A stretch of DNA of 38,660 bases from a virus. Location of the stretch: the UHGV virus genome UHGV-0366580. One strand, written 5' to 3'. The notes under the pieces were generated by a model, which was given only the letters and a program-made list of their open reading frames with translations, ran no database searches and was not told where the DNA came from. Below are positions 13,990 to 33,779 of this stretch, piece by piece. The translations under genes were made by a program, and so were the position numbers. Numbering within the stretch: the first letter of the stretch is position 1; every line of letters begins with the position of its first letter.

Positions 13990-15578
13990 TGGGACGCATA
14001 ATTGATCTTGACGGAAAACCTTTCTCCTTTGACCCGGAGATGCAGAGTGCCGTGCTGGATATTCCGCAGATTGCCAGCCGTTATATTGAACATCCGGCCT
14101 CGGGTATCACCCCGAACCGGGCGGCGCAGTGCCTTCGCGGGGCTGAACATGGCGATCTGATTGCCCAGTCCGATCTGGCGGCTGACATTGAAGAAAAGGA
14201 CACCCACCTTTTTGCAGAGCTGGGCAAGCGACGTCTTGCCATTCAGGGCGTGCCCTGGAGTATTGAGCCGCCACCGAACGCCAGCGCGAATGAGAAAAAG
14301 GACGCGGAAATGCTCGACGAATATCTGCATTCCGCCGACTGGTTTGATGCCATGCTGTTTGATGCTACCGATGCCATCCTGAAGGGCTATTCCTGTATGG
14401 AGATTGAGCACGGGATGCTCGGTAAAATGCACATCATCCGCGCCATCCGCTGGCGTGACAGCGGGCATTTCTGCCTTAACCCGGATGATTTGAGCGAACT
14501 GCGGCTGCGTGACGGCAGCCATGCCGGGGTGGCGTTTCAGCCCTTTGGCTGGATAGTGCATCAGTCACGTTCACGCACCGGTTACGGCGGCGCAACGGGG
14601 CTTGTCAGAACGCTTATCTGGCCGTTCATTTTCAAAAACTATTCCGTGCGCGATCTGGCTGAATTTCTGGAAGTGTACGGCCTGCCGATGAAGGTCGGTA
14701 AATACCCGTCCGGGGCAACACCGGAGCAGAAAAGCGCCCTGATGCGGGCGGTGATGGATATCGGGCGACGTACAGGCGGGATCATCCCGGCCGGGATGTC
14801 GCTGGAGTTTCAGGCGGCAGCGAACGGTCAGGCCGATCCGTTTGAAACCATGATTTCGTGGGGGGAGCGTTCCATCTCCAAAGCTATCCTCGGCGGCACG
14901 CTGACCACGGAAGCCGGAGACAAAGGCGCGCGCTCGCTGGGTGAAGTGCATAACGAGGTGCGCCGGGAAATCAGGGATTCTGATTTACGTCAGCTGGCTG
15001 CCACGCTGAACCGCGATCTGGTGTATCCGCTGTACGCCCTGAACACCACGCACACTATTGATATCCGCCGTCTGCCACGTATCTGCTTCCAGACAAAAGA
15101 ACCGGGGGATATCACCAAAATCACCAGTGCGGTGATGCAGCTCAGTACGGGGATGGATATTTCTGATCCCTGGATACGTGAGCAGACGGGTATTCCGCAG
15201 CCCACGCCCGGCGAAGCCATCTTCCGTGTCCGTCAGAGTGGCAATGAACCGGCTCAGACTGACAGGGAAATACCACCGGAAACACAGGAAAAGACAGAGC
15301 AGACGGCGCTGTCAGCCCGAGTGCCGGAAGCGAAAAGCAGCCCCCGTGATGAACTGGACGACATGGGGGATGCGGTGCCTGCCCGCCGGTTACAGGAGGC
15401 CATCGACCCGCTACTGGAGCCGGTCATTGATGCCATCAGAACGCGGGGGCTGGCGGATGCGCTGGCAGACCTGCCCGCCCTTTACCGTGAAATGGATGAT
15501 TCCCGCCTGATGACGCTGCTCAGTGATGCCATGTTTGCTGCGGAAATGAAGGGGATGCTGGATGGCACAGGGGATTGA
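13980..15578 (+). CDS. Portal protein (Mu gp29-like)
   Basis: 532 aa following the terminase; GTG start overlapping the terminase stop. Confidence 0.75.
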   Translation: MLVVGRIIDLDGKPFSFDPEMQSAVLDIPQIASRYIEHPASGITPNRAAQCLRGAEHGDLIAQSDLAADIEEKDTHLFAELGKRRLAIQGVPWSIEPPPNASANEKKDAEMLDEYLHSADWFDAMLFDATDAILKGYSCMEIEHGMLGKMHIIRAIRWRDSGHFCLNPDDLSELRLRDGSHAGVAFQPFGWIVHQSRSRTGYGGATGLVRTLIWPFIFKNYSVRDLAEFLEVYGLPMKVGKYPSGATPEQKSALMRAVMDIGRRTGGIIPAGMSLEFQAAANGQADPFETMISWGERSISKAILGGTLTTEAGDKGARSLGEVHNEVRREIRDSDLRQLAATLNRDLVYPLYALNTTHTIDIRRLPRICFQTKEPGDITKITSAVMQLSTGMDISDPWIREQTGIPQPTPGEAIFRVRQSGNEPAQTDREIPPETQEKTEQTALSARVPEAKSSPRDELDDMGDAVPARRLQEAIDPLLEPVIDAIRTRGLADALADLPALYREMDDSRLMTLLSDAMFAAEMKGMLDGTGD

Positions 15579-16887
15579 TCTGGGTTATGCCGCCACGCTT
15601 CCCTCAAAAGAGGCGGTGGCATACTTCCGCGCCAAAGGGGCGCATATCAGCTGGAACTGGTTCGAAACAGACGCGGATGTTCATGCCCGTTCATTCACGG
15701 CGGCAAAAGTGGCACGCCTGGACGTACTGACCACACTACAGGCGGAAGTGCAGCGTGCTGTTGATGAGGGGATTTCACAGAAAGCATTTATTCGCACGCT
15801 GACACCCCGCCTGCAAAAGCTGGGATGGTGGGGAAAACAGATTGTGGTGGACAGTGCCGGTAACGCGGAAGAAGTGCAGCTGGGCAGTCCCCGCCGTCTG
15901 GCGCTGATTTACAACGTGAACACCCGTGTGGCTTACAATGCCGGGCGTTACACGCAGATGATGAACAACACGGACACGCATCCGTTCTGGCAGTATGTGG
16001 CGGTGATGGACAGCCGCACCCGCCCGGCACATTCCGCCTTTAACGGGCTGGTATTCCGCTATGACGATCCGTTCTGGAATACACACTACCCGCCCAATGG
16101 CTGGAACTGCCGCTGCCGTGTCCGGCCATTATCTCAGGCCCGTCTGGATGCAATGGGGTTATCCGTTTCATCCGGTCAGGATCATCTCTCCACCCGCAAT
16201 GTTGAGGCTGGCGTGGATAAGCAGACCGGAGAAGTCAGAGAAATGCCGGTGACCACATATTCAGATGGCACCAGAACCATGACACCGGATGTGGGCTGGT
16301 CATATAACCCCGGTTCGGCGGCGTTCGGCACAGACCAGGCGCTGATCCGTAAACTGATCGAGGTGAAAAGCCCGGCGTTACGGGAAATGGTGGTTCAGGA
16401 GATGAACAACAGCCCGGAGCGGCAGCTGGCGTTCCGCATCTGGGCAAAAAACATCATGAAGACCCGGCGAGGTGGTCACGATATCCGCACGCTGGGCTTT
16501 ATGACCGAAAGTATTGCGCAGGCGGTGGAAAGCCGGACGGGAACGCCACCGGCCCGCCTGCTGGCGATGAGCGGTAAAAATGTGCTCCATGCGGACAGCG
16601 TGAAACATCAGAATGACGGCATTGCCCTGACGCCGGAGGATTTCGGGCGATTACCGGCAATGCTGGCCGCGCCTGATGCCGTGCTGTGGGATCATGTCCA
16701 TCAGAATCTGCTTTACATCACTGAAACCCGTGACGGAACGGCAAAGATTGCCGTCAATGCGCCTTATAGTGTGAAACGTCAGCCGGATAAGCTGGATGTG
16801 GTGATTAATGCCTACAGAGTCAAAAAGGAGGCATTACTTGATGATCTGCGCGGTGGAAAGCTGGAATTACTGGAGGGTGAATTGTAG
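15562..16887 (+). CDS. Mu F-like head morphogenesis protein
   Basis: 441 aa; contains the NGWNCRCRV region typical of Mu F / SPP1 gp7 minor head proteins. Confidence 0.75.
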   Translation: MAQGIDLGYAATLPSKEAVAYFRAKGAHISWNWFETDADVHARSFTAAKVARLDVLTTLQAEVQRAVDEGISQKAFIRTLTPRLQKLGWWGKQIVVDSAGNAEEVQLGSPRRLALIYNVNTRVAYNAGRYTQMMNNTDTHPFWQYVAVMDSRTRPAHSAFNGLVFRYDDPFWNTHYPPNGWNCRCRVRPLSQARLDAMGLSVSSGQDHLSTRNVEAGVDKQTGEVREMPVTTYSDGTRTMTPDVGWSYNPGSAAFGTDQALIRKLIEVKSPALREMVVQEMNNSPERQLAFRIWAKNIMKTRRGGHDIRTLGFMTESIAQAVESRTGTPPARLLAMSGKNVLHADSVKHQNDGIALTPEDFGRLPAMLAAPDAVLWDHVHQNLLYITETRDGTAKIAVNAPYSVKRQPDKLDVVINAYRVKKEALLDDLRGGKLELLEGEL

Positions 16888-16971
16888 GTCGGTGGCGGGG
16901 GTCGAACCCGCATAAACATCCCTCAGGAAAAAACCATCAGGCGCCGCTTTACCAGTTAAGAGTACACCGAC
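16888..16971 (-). other. tRNA-like element or degenerate tRNA remnant
   Basis: Minus strand: 7-bp acceptor stem GTCGGTG/CACCGAC, U8-A9, D-loop-like TAACTGGTAAAG with GG, canonical T-arm GCGGG-TTCGACC-CCCGC; no clean anticodon stem found; no CCA. Confidence 0.35.
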
Positions 16972-17009
16972 CTGCTTTTATTTTAACCAGGTAGTTTCAC
17001 GGAGGCAAT

Positions 17010-17483
17010 ATGTCATCCATTGATGCCGCTGTCGTTGTTGACGTTACGCGTCTCCAGCGGGTGTTTGCCCGGCTTCAGTTTGTGGGGGGCGGAAAAGACC
17101 TGGCCCGCAGTGTGGCGTCCAGCCTTCTGTCATCCTCAGAAATGGCGTTTGAACAGGAAAAAGAGCCGGACGGCGAACGCTGGCATGACTGGTCAGATCC
17201 TTACCGCAAGTGGCGTACCCGTAAGGGATACACGCCCGGCAAAATCCTGACGCTGAACGGCGATCTGGCCCGCCGCCTGACCACGGATTATGGCGATACC
17301 TGGGCGCTGATTGGATCAAATGAACCTTATGCAGCCATTCATCAGTGGGGTGGCCTGCCTGGTATGCCACCGGGACTGGCAGCCATTGGCGCACGTCCGT
17401 ATATGGGCTTTGATGAGGTGGCTGAACAGGAGATCATGGACGAAATCAGAAAACGCTTTAAAAAGGCCACAGAAACGCCTTAA
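17010..17483 (+). CDS. Mu G-like virion morphogenesis protein
   Basis: 157 aa; position between F-like and I-like genes. Confidence 0.7.
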   Translation: MSSIDAAVVVDVTRLQRVFARLQFVGGGKDLARSVASSLLSSSEMAFEQEKEPDGERWHDWSDPYRKWRTRKGYTPGKILTLNGDLARRLTTDYGDTWALIGSNEPYAAIHQWGGLPGMPPGLAAIGARPYMGFDEVAEQEIMDEIRKRFKKATETP

Positions 17484-32142: not shown

Positions 32143-32685
32143 TTATTCAGGCTTCTCCGGCCATTTAATGTCGTCAAATTCAGCTTTGTTTTTAATCGCT
32201 GGTAGTTCCATTTTTTTCACCTGACTGATGTATGCCATCCATCGGGTAAGTGCGGCTCTGTCTTCATCACTGATGGTGCCCAGCTGTAATTCTGTTCTCC
32301 AGTCATTAATTTTTTCATATGCCTGATTAAGATATGACTGGCGCATTGCTTCCAGTTTTCTTGCGTAGTTAACCGGAATACGGGAGATCACGCCATTATC
32401 AAACTTCCAGTTACCCGAAATATCAGCACCTTCAGGGAGTTCGTCGACTTCAACCACAGAGAACCCCGCAGGATACAGCGCCGAAGCGTCCTGTGATATT
32501 GAGCAGATAATGCCGCTGTCAGGTGTTATACAAAGTTTATATTTTTTTGTGAATAATGGCAGGGACTCGTAGAAATCCTTACCATCTTCACTCTGAAAAT
32601 ACTGTACATCATTACCATAGAGGGTGTTTTCCGGGTAATATCGTTTAACATTAATCAGTTGCATAAACATCACCATGTGAATCAA
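32143..32685 (-). CDS. Tail fibre assembly protein (U'-like), currently antisense to the tail operon
   Basis: 180-aa minus-strand ORF inside the invertible segment, downstream of Sv' on that strand. Confidence 0.7.
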   Translation of the reverse strand: MIHMVMFMQLINVKRYYPENTLYGNDVQYFQSEDGKDFYESLPLFTKKYKLCITPDSGIICSISQDASALYPAGFSVVEVDELPEGADISGNWKFDNGVISRIPVNYARKLEAMRQSYLNQAYEKINDWRTELQLGTISDEDRAALTRWMAYISQVKKMELPAIKNKAEFDDIKWPEKPE

Positions 32686-32784
32686 TGATAAAAACAGGAA
32701 TAATACTATCGCTATATACGGACAGGGGTTGTCTGAGATAACGCATATATCAGGCGCTGCCTGCCGTACGCCATGAGCCGTTAA

Positions 32785-33160
32785 TTAAATACTTGCAGCG
32801 GATACCCAATTCCCATTAATACAATATTGTATCTGTCTGTAATAAACACGGTCATCACCACCACGCATTTCCCAGTCTCCGTCAGTCTTAAAACCGGTAA
32901 TCACATTTCCTGATGACAGGGAGTAATTATATTCCAGTACGCCGCTTAATGCCTGCGCTCCCAGTCTTACCCCTGTAACATAACGCTGATTGGCCGTTGA
33001 TTCCGGCATTCCTGACGTAATGTTTATATCCCGCGTCCCGTCGAAAGGAACACCATTAATATTTCTTGGGGTGGCGAGTCTGTTTGCTGCCACGGCGGTT
33101 CCCCCCGATGGCAGGGCATCAGCGGCCTTATTTACCGTTTCCCGTAAACCGAGGTTTCAG
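32785..33160 (-). CDS. Alternative tail-fibre C-terminal module Sv' (no start of its own; expressed only after inversion)
   Basis: Minus-strand frame open from the gix-R core; encodes ...NRLATPRNINGVPFDGTRDINITSGMPES..., a paralogue of the S C-terminus. Confidence 0.7.
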
Positions 33161-33174
33161 GGATGCCGTATATC
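33149..33174 (+). other. gix-R-like recombination site (TTCCCGTAAACC / GGTTTCAGGGAT, core GA)
   Basis: Inverted copy of gix-L with matching core dinucleotide (TC/GA), 45 bp upstream of gin. Confidence 0.7.
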
Positions 33175-33218
33175 TGCTTTAAAAAGCATTTCCACCTCTT
33201 TTTAAGGAAGGTAAATAC

Positions 33219-33779
33219 ATGCTGATTGGCTATATACGCGTATCAACAAATGACCAGAACACAGGTTTACAAAGAAATGCGCTGGAATGTGCAGGATGTG
33301 AGCAGATTTTTGAAGACAAAATGAGTGGTAAAACGACGCAGCGGCCGGGACTGAAGCGGGCACTGAAGAAACTAAAACCCGGCGACACACTGATGGTCTG
33401 GAAACTGGACAGGCTGGGGCGCAGTATGCGCCACCTTGTTGCGCTGACAGATGAATTACAGCAACAGGGGATAAATTTTCGTAGTCTTACTGACAACATT
33501 GATACGTCAACCCCCATGGGGCGCTTCTTTTTTCACATAATGGGTGCGCTGGCAGAAATGGAGCGTGAATTGATTGTCGAACGGACACGGGCTGGTCTTG
33601 CTGCTGCCCGTGAAAGGGGACGAACCGGCGGCAGACCCCGTCGTCTCACGCAGGAACAATACGAGCAGGTCGGGCGTTTACTGGCCGGGGGTGTCAGCCG
33701 AAGACAGGTGGCACTTATTTTTGATATCGGCCTTTCAACCCTTTATCGTTATTATCCTGCGAGCGTTTCGGAAAAATAA
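33219..33779 (+). CDS. gin: Gin DNA invertase (serine recombinase, Hin/Gin/Pin/Cin family)
   Basis: 186 aa; MLIGYIRVSTNDQ catalytic-serine motif and C-terminal HTH; closely resembles Mu Gin as recalled from memory. Confidence 0.92.
   Translation: MLIGYIRVSTNDQNTGLQRNALECAGCEQIFEDKMSGKTTQRPGLKRALKKLKPGDTLMVWKLDRLGRSMRHLVALTDELQQQGINFRSLTDNIDTSTPMGRFFFHIMGALAEMERELIVERTRAGLAAARERGRTGGRPRRLTQEQYEQVGRLLAGGVSRRQVALIFDIGLSTLYRYYPASVSEK

Follow-up and report, generated by a model that had tools for sequence, protein, structure and literature searches.

A predicted tRNA-shaped RNA without anticodon loop or free acceptor end between the F-like and G-like genes of Mu-like prophages

tRNA-like RNAs of phages and bacteria, and the locus studied

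Among the closest described systems are the C4 RNA of phages P1 and P7 and the CI RNA of P4, small stable RNAs of about 77 to 80 nt that belong to temperate phages and satellites, are matured by RNase P, and owe their specificity to lineage-specific loops. Phage T4 encodes two stable tRNA-like RNAs, species 1 and species 2, for which no function is known. In the bacterial Y RNA YrlA, a module without anticodon mimics the T-arm, the D-arm and an acceptor-like stem of tRNA, and the pseudo-tRNA of Bacillus cereus (tRNA-Other) is tRNA-shaped, is labelled 'other' by tRNA finders, and is regulatory, not decoding. Both C4 and the M3 RNA of phi80 are listed as RNase P substrates (PMC11143913).

The locus described here lies in a 38,660-nt stretch of DNA (UHGV virus genome UHGV-0366580; hereafter, the window), which is a Mu-like prophage. 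Around the site, the gene order is portal (Portal_Mu), F-like, G-like and protease (Mu-like_Pro), all on the plus strand, and the element occupies the minus strand of the 122-nt spacer between the F-like and G-like genes. A scan of the window with a covariance model of the family found this single copy. The locus is made up as follows:

15562-16887, plus strand: F-like gene, with Phage_Mu_F and MuF_C domains; it flanks the RNA and is not part of it
16886-16973, minus strand: tRNA-shaped RNA of about 88 nt, from its predicted start to the end of the terminal helix (Rfam tRNA model, 27.4 bits; family model R1, 91 bits; labelled 'tRNA-OTHER' by PGAP at the identical locus of NZ_CP053731.1)
17010-17483, plus strand: G-like gene (Phage_tail_S, virion morphogenesis); likewise flanking, and not part of the RNA

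At its 3' end the RNA reaches into the F-like gene, positions 73 (16887) and 74 (16886) lying inside the TAG stop codon (16885-16887, plus strand), while on the other side the whole locus with its predicted promoter extends to 17008, the -35 element of this promoter overlapping the ribosome-binding region of G.

With regard to the described systems, the C4 (RF01695) and isrK models gave no match in the window even at E values of up to 10, though they do match a chromosomal island considered below, and the present RNA differs from C4 and P4 CI in that it keeps the full tRNA elbow, has its predicted start at the base of the stem, and yielded no complementary targets in the window or in the 12.5 kb sequenced from the island. 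The T4 species 1 and 2 RNAs and phi80 M3 are phage-encoded, stable and tRNA-like at their ends, with no known function, and the present, presumably stable RNA resembles them in this; but their genes belong to, or are close to, clusters of tRNA genes in lytic or lambdoid phages, and they have CCA-type ends. The likeness is one of kind, and we claim no homology. In YrlA, the ends of the RNA form part of the Ro-binding helix and a loop closes off the acceptor-like stem, whereas the present RNA has the reverse topology, its ends forming the acceptor-like stem; no Rfam hit to YrlA or another Y RNA was obtained in the window, and the genes on either side are phage head genes instead of rsr. The tRNA-Other of B. 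cereus is encoded on the chromosome, still has an anticodon arm and can be charged with an amino acid; it is unrelated to the present RNA in sequence and context. Finally, the element shares with phage morons the character of an extra unit, with its own (predicted) promoter, between genes that are adjacent in related phages, but its product would be an RNA and not a protein, and it has no terminator. Rfam holds no family for this tRNA-shaped RNA, and our literature searches did not find a published description of the element.

Anatomy of the RNA and its likeness to tRNA

Read from 5' to 3', the RNA is composed of the following parts:

16965-16973, minus strand: 5' strand of the terminal (acceptor-like) stem of 9 bp, positions -2 to 7; eight of the nine pairs have changed on both sides
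16946-16964, minus strand: U8 A9, one additional C, then the D-arm (three solid pairs in the stem UCUU/AAGC; loop AACUGGUA with G18 G19), nearly invariant over 26 sequences
16912-16945, minus strand: variable arm of 34 nt replacing the anticodon arm, hypervariable between clades in sequence and length and always a capped helix
16895-16911, minus strand: T-arm GCGGG-UUCGACC-CCCGC, with 98.3% of cells paired and two pairs showing double changes
16886-16894, minus strand: 3' strand of the terminal stem, positions 66-74, as read from the sequence and the covariation

The terminal stem contains a perfect 7-bp acceptor core, GUCGGUG/CACCGAC (16971-16965 with 16894-16888), after which U8 A9 follow, and is prolonged in the window by the pairs G16972:C16887 (-1:73) and A16973:U16886 (-2:74). 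The first-pass annotation had drawn attention to the 7-bp acceptor stem, U8-A9, a D-loop GG and the T-arm (16911-16895), all of which are present in the minus-strand sequence, and its failure to find an anticodon stem-loop or a CCA is borne out as well: there is no 7-nt loop, no CCA is encoded, and the 3' flank reads C-UAC. It had placed the element at 16888-16971, which is the right site, but the extent is better drawn as 16886-16973, taking in the two further covarying pairs. Since the terminal stem is extended by -1:73 and -2:74, no single-stranded NCCA is left; in some lineages this stem counts 10, 11 or 14 pairs.

In the D-stem, three pairs are invariant or nearly so in the family alignments, and most sequences have a U-C mismatch in place of the fourth; the family is also marked by an additional nucleotide between A9 and the D-stem. 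The variable arm of the window begins with the proximal pairs G-U, C-G and G-U (G27-U43, C28-G42 and R29-U41 in the clade of the window), continues as CCU-GA(U)-GG / CC-(U)GA-GG with a GA-containing internal loop, and is capped by UUUUUU; the UUAU that follows it is the equivalent of a short variable loop. Other lineages close the arm with UUCG, UCCG, GUAA or UCAG caps, or with loops of up to 13 nt, and a 7-nt loop on a 5-bp stem at the anticodon position is absent from all family members aligned. The elbow nucleotides, namely U8, A14, A15 opposite U48, G18 G19, U54 U55 C56 R57 A58 and G53:C61, are nearly invariant over the 26 sequences. One E. coli subgroup carries C instead of A58 in the T-loop, so not every copy need be functional.

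The RNA shares with canonical bacterial tRNA (RF00005) the cloverleaf, the 7-bp acceptor core, U8, G18 G19 of the D-loop, the 5-bp T-stem, the UUCRA motif of the T-arm, and a short variable loop whose last nucleotide, U48, faces A15. It differs from tRNA by the lack of a 7-nt anticodon loop and of an encoded CCA, by the extension of the acceptor with covarying pairs, by the extra nucleotide between A9 and the D-stem, and by the usually mismatched fourth D-stem pair. In a permissive local scan, RF00005 matched 16887-16971 (minus strand) over model positions 1-71 with 27.4 bits (E = 8e-4), that is, 1.6 bits below its cut-off of 29 bits, and in this alignment 25 nt stand where the model has 13 central anticodon-arm positions; two relatives score above the cut-off (31.8 and 31.1 bits). 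The possibility, raised at first, that no covariance model would match the element can be set aside on these scores. At the gathering threshold no Rfam family was reached anywhere in the window, and two snoRNA matches of the permissive scan were dismissed as chance. ARAGORN called no tRNA or tmRNA in the window and none of the elements in 12 family-bearing loci; it is too strict for this RNA family, and its negative does not count against the element. No Rfam match to tmRNA was seen either, and the intergenic region measures 122 nt against the roughly 300-400 nt expected of a tag-bearing RNA. PGAP, for its part, labels the homologous site 'tRNA-OTHER' (minus strand, 80-88 nt) in most of the E. 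coli prophages inspected.

Judged as a canonical tRNA, the element has the elbow but not the anticodon arm, the free CCA end or a score at the model threshold. A search for a donor tRNA, which the first-pass annotation had suggested, identified none; tRNA-His was the commonest of the real tRNAs carrying the D-arm motif among the matches listed (26/120), a weak hint about ancestry and not a donor. As read from its sequences, the RNA is a tRNA body of which both working ends, anticodon and acceptor, are closed off, and on the same reading the missing anticodon loop and free acceptor end are a conserved design and not damage.

Covariation, promoter and distribution

The folding energy of the single sequence is unremarkable (z = -1.08), and z-scores were not significant on either strand. 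Two alignments were compared. The first, of 26 distinct sequences, was MAFFT-based and made no reference to structure, and in it the terminal stem, D-stem and T-stem were 89.3% paired as compared with 79.3% in shuffles, with a covariation score of 0.377 versus 0.182 (reached by 0/500 shuffles; slid controls, <=0.156). The second, of 36 distinct sequences, was obtained via the family covariance model and is fitted to the structure, so that its pairing counts are somewhat inflated; here 92.7% of cells were paired versus 78.3% in shuffles, and the covariation score was 0.461 versus 0.176 (again reached by 0/500 shuffles; slid controls, <=0.171). Compensatory changes, affecting both partners, are seen in 13 of the 18 stem pairs over these 36 sequences. 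Of the two pairs that prolong the terminal stem, -1:73 is present in 33/36 (G-C in 18, U-A in 6, A-U in 5, G-U in 3 and U-G in 1) and -2:74 in 28/36, with five pair types. The strand can be told from the G-U cells in core pairs, 25 of which pair on the minus strand only, as against 2 A-C cells that would pair on the plus strand only; at the first pair of the T-stem there are 8 G-U variants, for which pairing is restricted to the minus strand.

The comparative data are decisive in this respect, while the single sequence on its own is suggestive and not conclusive: judged by the covariation, the terminal stem, the D-arm and the T-arm are selected as RNA structure on the minus strand, and the element is very probably a structured, selected RNA gene. 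Among the origins first put forward, that of a tRNA-like element thus finds support, in the form of a selected structured tRNA-like RNA with a predicted promoter of its own and covariation in 13/18 pairs, whereas neither a degenerate tRNA nor a relic of recombination agrees with compensatory changes of this extent, which are not expected of decay or of an attachment-site relic.

Upstream of the RNA, the following elements were recognised:

17003-17008, minus strand: -35-like hexamer TTGCCT, the complement of the G Shine-Dalgarno/start region (GGAGGCAATATG)
16980-16985, minus strand: -10 hexamer TAAAAT, invariant among E. coli clades
16973, minus strand: predicted transcription start A, the seventh nucleotide past the -10, with which the pairing of the terminal stem begins (from promoter geometry)

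No sigma-70-like site other than TTGCCT-17-TAAAAT (17008-16980, minus strand) was found in 16500-17400. E. coli and related clades have TTGCC(T/C) at 17-18 nt from the -10, and in independent lineages the -10 reads TATAAT, TATACT or TATATT at the same distance, several of them with TGn (extended -10). In most lineages with terminal stems of 8, 9 or 14 bp, the -10 ends 6-8 nt before the first paired base, and a lineage with the 14-bp stem is among them; the fit is looser in three (L194, L215 and L231), where the predicted start is merely within a few nucleotides of the first pair. No terminator-like site was found on the minus strand in 16500-17400 and, as none lies downstream, the transcript would run antisense into the 3' end of F. 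These observations suggest that the RNA has its own promoter, of predicted activity, and is independently transcribed; the placement of the promoter is strong indirect evidence that the primary 5' end would also be the functional 5' end, and the 3' end presumably results from processing that removes the transcript up to the terminal helix. A 5'-terminal helix stabilises E. coli transcripts, and the predicted start at the stem agrees with this. Viewed as a moron, the element is inserted between adjacent genes and has a promoter of its own, as predicted, and no terminator of its own. The predicted start at the first paired base also suggests that 5' maturation by RNase P may be dispensable for single copies; tandem arrays would need processing.

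The homologous F-G junction was found in 231 of 5,426 complete E. coli genomes, O157:H7 strains included, and pattern and protein searches added further members from viral and metagenomic contigs. A loose D-loop and T-loop pattern, which mostly returned ordinary tRNAs, gave one true member, in Edwardsiella anguillarum, among the matches listed, so that the taxonomic range reported here is an under-sampled one. In Mu itself, gp30 (F) runs as far as 17392 and G begins at 17389, which makes a 4-nt overlap without spacer and agrees with the first-pass remark that Mu has no tRNA here; the F-G junctions of D108 and SfMu look like that of Mu, and a relative with 64% identity in G (L064) has about 12 nt between the two genes. 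Because F and G overlap in Mu, we regard the element as an insertion at the F-G junction. Its position and antisense orientation at this junction are constant in nearly all Mu-like phages examined, a constancy that could point to a position-dependent role, against a reading in trans. In two lineages the RNA is duplicated in tandem, together with a fragment of the 5' end of G, and the two copies differ in their arm.

Members of the family also occur elsewhere. In one group of Mu-like elements (L215, L230 and L222/L232), the promoter and the RNA lie directly upstream of a cargo slot, on the same strand, and the RNA is followed in L215, L230 and L232 by three different cargo genes; between L230 and L232 the flanks of the slot are 94-97% identical and the downstream gene is different. 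One of the cargo genes codes for a DUF2971 protein that matches the candidate defence family PDC-S31, and the others code for unrelated proteins without known function. Furthermore, an E. coli island of about 11 kb, situated between yicC and dinD, carries at its accessory end a tandem array of 2-3 copies with different arms. This island contains an integrase, AntA/B, Icd-like genes, toprim, DUF927, PerC and Mor, the array being next to the Mor gene; part or all of the array region is present in 89/5,426 genomes, and most of it in 14. The array copies resemble the main phage arm types and are about 86% identical to the phage copies, and one of them is called 'tRNA-Tyr' by PGAP. At one island locus (L217), the C4 and isrK models score 80.7, 74 and 60.7 bits (two C4 copies and one isrK).

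Proposed role and rival explanations

The elbow and the acceptor/T-arm helix form the surface of tRNA that is read by RNase P, by other tRNA-processing or tRNA-modifying enzymes and by some tRNA-directed toxins. With anticodon and acceptor end both closed, it is this part that remains recognisable in the present RNA. The reading we prefer is that of an independently transcribed, stable mimic of the tRNA body, which would act in trans as an accessory RNA; we give it a probability of roughly 0.55. Its genomic settings are typical of conflict accessory genes: it occurs as a moron in the late operon, at a cargo slot by a candidate defence gene, and in an island at the accessory end. Different arm types coexist in several lineages, suggesting that specificity resides in the arm. 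The variable arm has no evident complementary target: on both strands of the window, and in the 12.5 kb sequenced from the island, no Watson-Crick match exceeds 11 nt, about what chance would give. The G protein was considered as a specificity partner and rejected, as it is identical (WP_000094812.1) in prophages with different RNA types.

The main rival to this reading is antisense control of the F-G late transcript, resembling that by P1/P7 C4 or P4 CI, with the tRNA shape serving for processing or stability alone. By pairing with this transcript, the RNA or its read-through would control F/G, or silence leaky late transcription in the lysogen, and the island copies would act in trans on the F-G mRNA of a helper phage. 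Such a role, which we consider rather unlikely, would suit the fixed antisense position at F-G in many divergent Mu-like phages, the overlap of the RNA promoter with the G ribosome-binding region and the lack of a terminator ahead of F. C4 provides the precedent of a known phage RNA processed by RNase P (PMC11143913), and the array copies, at about 86% identity to the phage copies, would be complementary to the phage late mRNA. However, members are also found where the F-G mRNA is absent, in cargo slots and island arrays; many arms are capped by UUCG, UCCG or GUAA-type loops, which are structural and not pairing loops; neither the window nor the 12.5 kb sequenced from the island yielded a separate target site; the conserved elbow nucleotides would be needless for a pure antisense role; and the Rfam C4 model, without match in the window, readily finds the two C4 copies of the island. 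It is because of the occurrence outside F-G, the tetraloop caps, the conserved elbow and the lack of any target longer than 11 nt in the sequences searched that we favour a shape-based function in trans over a purely antisense one. Less probable still is a promoter-plus-leader module for cargo cassettes, whose tRNA-shaped 5' structure would make the transcripts of any downstream cargo more stable or take part in their processing, whose conserved DNA would offer a homology anchor for cargo exchange, and of which the window copy would be an empty cassette. The direct upstream, same-strand position before three different cargo genes (L230, L232 and L215), the 94-97% identical flanks of L230 and L232, and the known stabilisation of E. 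coli transcripts by a helix at the transcription start all fit with it, but the cargo-less copies are the majority and still display compensatory evolution and a conserved elbow where an empty leader should decay, a simple hairpin would do as stabiliser, and the arrays of 2-3 copies are left unexplained.

A structure of the plus-strand late mRNA, for instance a terminator, an attenuator or a processing site in the F-G intercistronic region, is brought to mind by the 8-9-bp stem, which encloses a structured domain and has a U-rich stretch, UGCUUUUAUUUU, after it. We hold it very unlikely, given that on the plus strand 25 core G-U cells turn into C-A mismatches for 2 gained, that the D- and T-loop consensus is matched on the minus strand only, that the tail is not U-rich where the -10 is TATAAT or TATACT, and that the terminator scan found no such site; a plus-strand terminator in particular was rejected on the G-U asymmetry and the TATAAT lineages. 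A functional tRNA or amino-acid carrier, charged by a synthetase that ignores the anticodon after processing and CCA addition, would find its acceptor core of 7 bp, D-loop and T-arm intact, and G-1:C73, present in the window and 18/36 relatives, recalls tRNA-His, the tRNA that also leads the D-arm motif matches (26/120, among the matches listed). It is nonetheless slightly more improbable even than the plus-strand structure: no member has a 7-nt anticodon loop and ARAGORN calls none; CCA is not encoded, while E. coli tRNA genes, to our knowledge, all include it; the covariation of -1:73 and -2:74 preserves pairing (G-C, A-U, U-A, G-U), with no synthetase identity being kept; terminal stems reach 14 bp; and G3:U70 is absent. 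As for a decaying tRNA pseudogene or a leftover of integration or recombination, the score below the Rfam tRNA threshold and the want of anticodon and CCA are what one would predict from it, but the compensatory changes in 13/18 pairs, the conserved promoter and the spread over E. coli, Edwardsiella and metagenomes make its chances close to negligible; moreover, Mu-like phages transpose and are not known to integrate at tRNA genes, which also counts against it.

Returning to the mimic acting in trans, host sigma-70 RNA polymerase would start at A16973, the first paired base, so that the 5' end, buried in a helix, would resist 5'-end-dependent decay; transcription would proceed antisense into F without terminator, and the 3' end would be trimmed to the terminal helix. 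Made in the lysogen and during lytic growth, the RNA would behave as a 'moron', that is, an accessory gene with its own promoter in a phage operon. In the most speculative step, it would serve in trans as decoy or ligand for a factor that reads the tRNA elbow and the acceptor/T-arm body, candidate partners being enzymes that process or modify tRNAs, RNase P among them, and toxins or defence nucleases directed at tRNA. Its specificity would be tuned by the variable arm, or the arm would decide the partner engaged, and the setting would be phage-host or phage-satellite conflict. That the RNA is a decoy for a tRNA-binding conflict factor is possible, and we propose it tentatively. With more reserve, we raise the idea that these RNAs may be a class of RNA-only conflict modules not recognised before, anticodon-less and end-capped tRNA decoys borne both by Mu-like prophages and by satellite-like islands, the latter possibly exploiting these phages; this, if true, would explain both the 2-3 arm types found side by side in islands and some phages and the cargo hot spots by candidate defence genes.

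What is new here is a predicted tRNA-mimicking non-coding RNA with a distinctive end-capped architecture. Pipelines mislabel the element 'tRNA-OTHER', and it should no longer be included in counts of tRNA genes. Mimicry of tRNA recurs throughout RNA biology, but few cases from bacteria or phages are understood; the family described here is compact and widespread. An intact tRNA body with closed ends and a promoter that starts at the helix points to a function that reads tRNA shape and not to decoding, and the accessory and defence-cargo positions, together with the sharing between Mu-like phages and an integrase-bearing island, make the element a testable RNA candidate in phage-host or phage-satellite conflict.

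Recombination and gene exchange around the RNA

Sequence comparison of the retrieved loci showed that the spacer between the F-like and G-like genes, the usual site of the anticodon-less family RNA in Mu-like phages, has undergone tandem duplication in two of them, the repeated unit comprising the RNA gene together with its promoter and a 5'-end fragment of the G-like gene. In both loci, the two RNA copies differ from each other in their variable arms, the capped helix that replaces the anticodon arm:

L200, 1202-1281 and 1540-1623: duplicated RNA copies
L194, 119-197 and 753-833: duplicated RNA copies

Two E. coli prophages (L003 and L006) encode an identical G protein (WP_000094812.1) but fall into different clades in both RNA and F gene, which places a recombination breakpoint between the RNA and G. 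Three further loci have a cargo slot directly downstream of the family RNA, and each of them carries a different gene there; in one, the gene product is a DUF2971 protein that matches PDC-S31, a candidate defence family in PADLOC. L230 and L232 share 94-97% identity in the flanks of the slot.

L232, 2128-3795: cargo slot
L230, 263-1054: cargo slot, compared with L232
L215, 160-1500: cargo slot, compared with L232

Elsewhere in the window, two minus-strand ORFs stand among the plus-strand ORFs of the tail region, with a 198-aa plus-strand ORF after them, a layout (32143-33779) that recalls the invertible G segment of Mu and its invertase.

32143-32784, minus strand: ORF
32785-33156, minus strand: ORF

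An RNA array in the yicC-dinD island

Between yicC and dinD, E. coli harbors an island of approximately 11 kb (L216, 6170-6477; L217, corresponding to about 75.5-86.5 kb of NZ_AP045179.1; and L202, L205, L209 and L211), which encodes an integrase, an HTH protein, AntA/B, two Icd-like genes, toprim, DUF927, a partial SSB, PerC and Mor. At its end, 2-3 family RNAs with differing arms form a tandem array, one of these RNAs being labeled tRNA-Tyr by PGAP. A search of 5,426 E. coli genomes found the array region, whole or in part, in 89, with most of it present in 14. Four further RNAs are present in the island in L217, two of them C4 antisense RNAs (80.7 and 74 bits), one isrK and one int-alpA; the Icd-like and antirepressor genes adjoin them in an arrangement resembling P1 immI:

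L217, 1251-1338, 1740-1827, 1876-1955 and 4177-4242, minus strand: C4, isrK and int-alpA RNAs

Judging by its layout, the island looks like a phage satellite, which may be linked to Mu-like phages.

Deviant copies and ancestry

In one group of clade-2 copies (L036, L038, L048, L054, L056 and L057), the T-loop reads UUCGCCC (A58 to C), a change expected to disrupt the conserved U54-A58 pair; these copies may therefore be inactivated. The lowest-scoring family match (L208, 639-718; 59 bits) adjoins a pilin-like gene with an N_methyl motif, in a context that is not Mu-like, and may represent another kind of element, because its T-stem is mismatched and its 3' end is ACCA-like. Finally, the D-arm motif CTTAAYYGGTAAAG is common to the family RNA and to ordinary tRNAs of many phyla (L069-L188), its most frequent carrier among the matches listed being tRNA-His(GUG) (26/120), a sharing that hints faintly at the ancestry of the RNA family.
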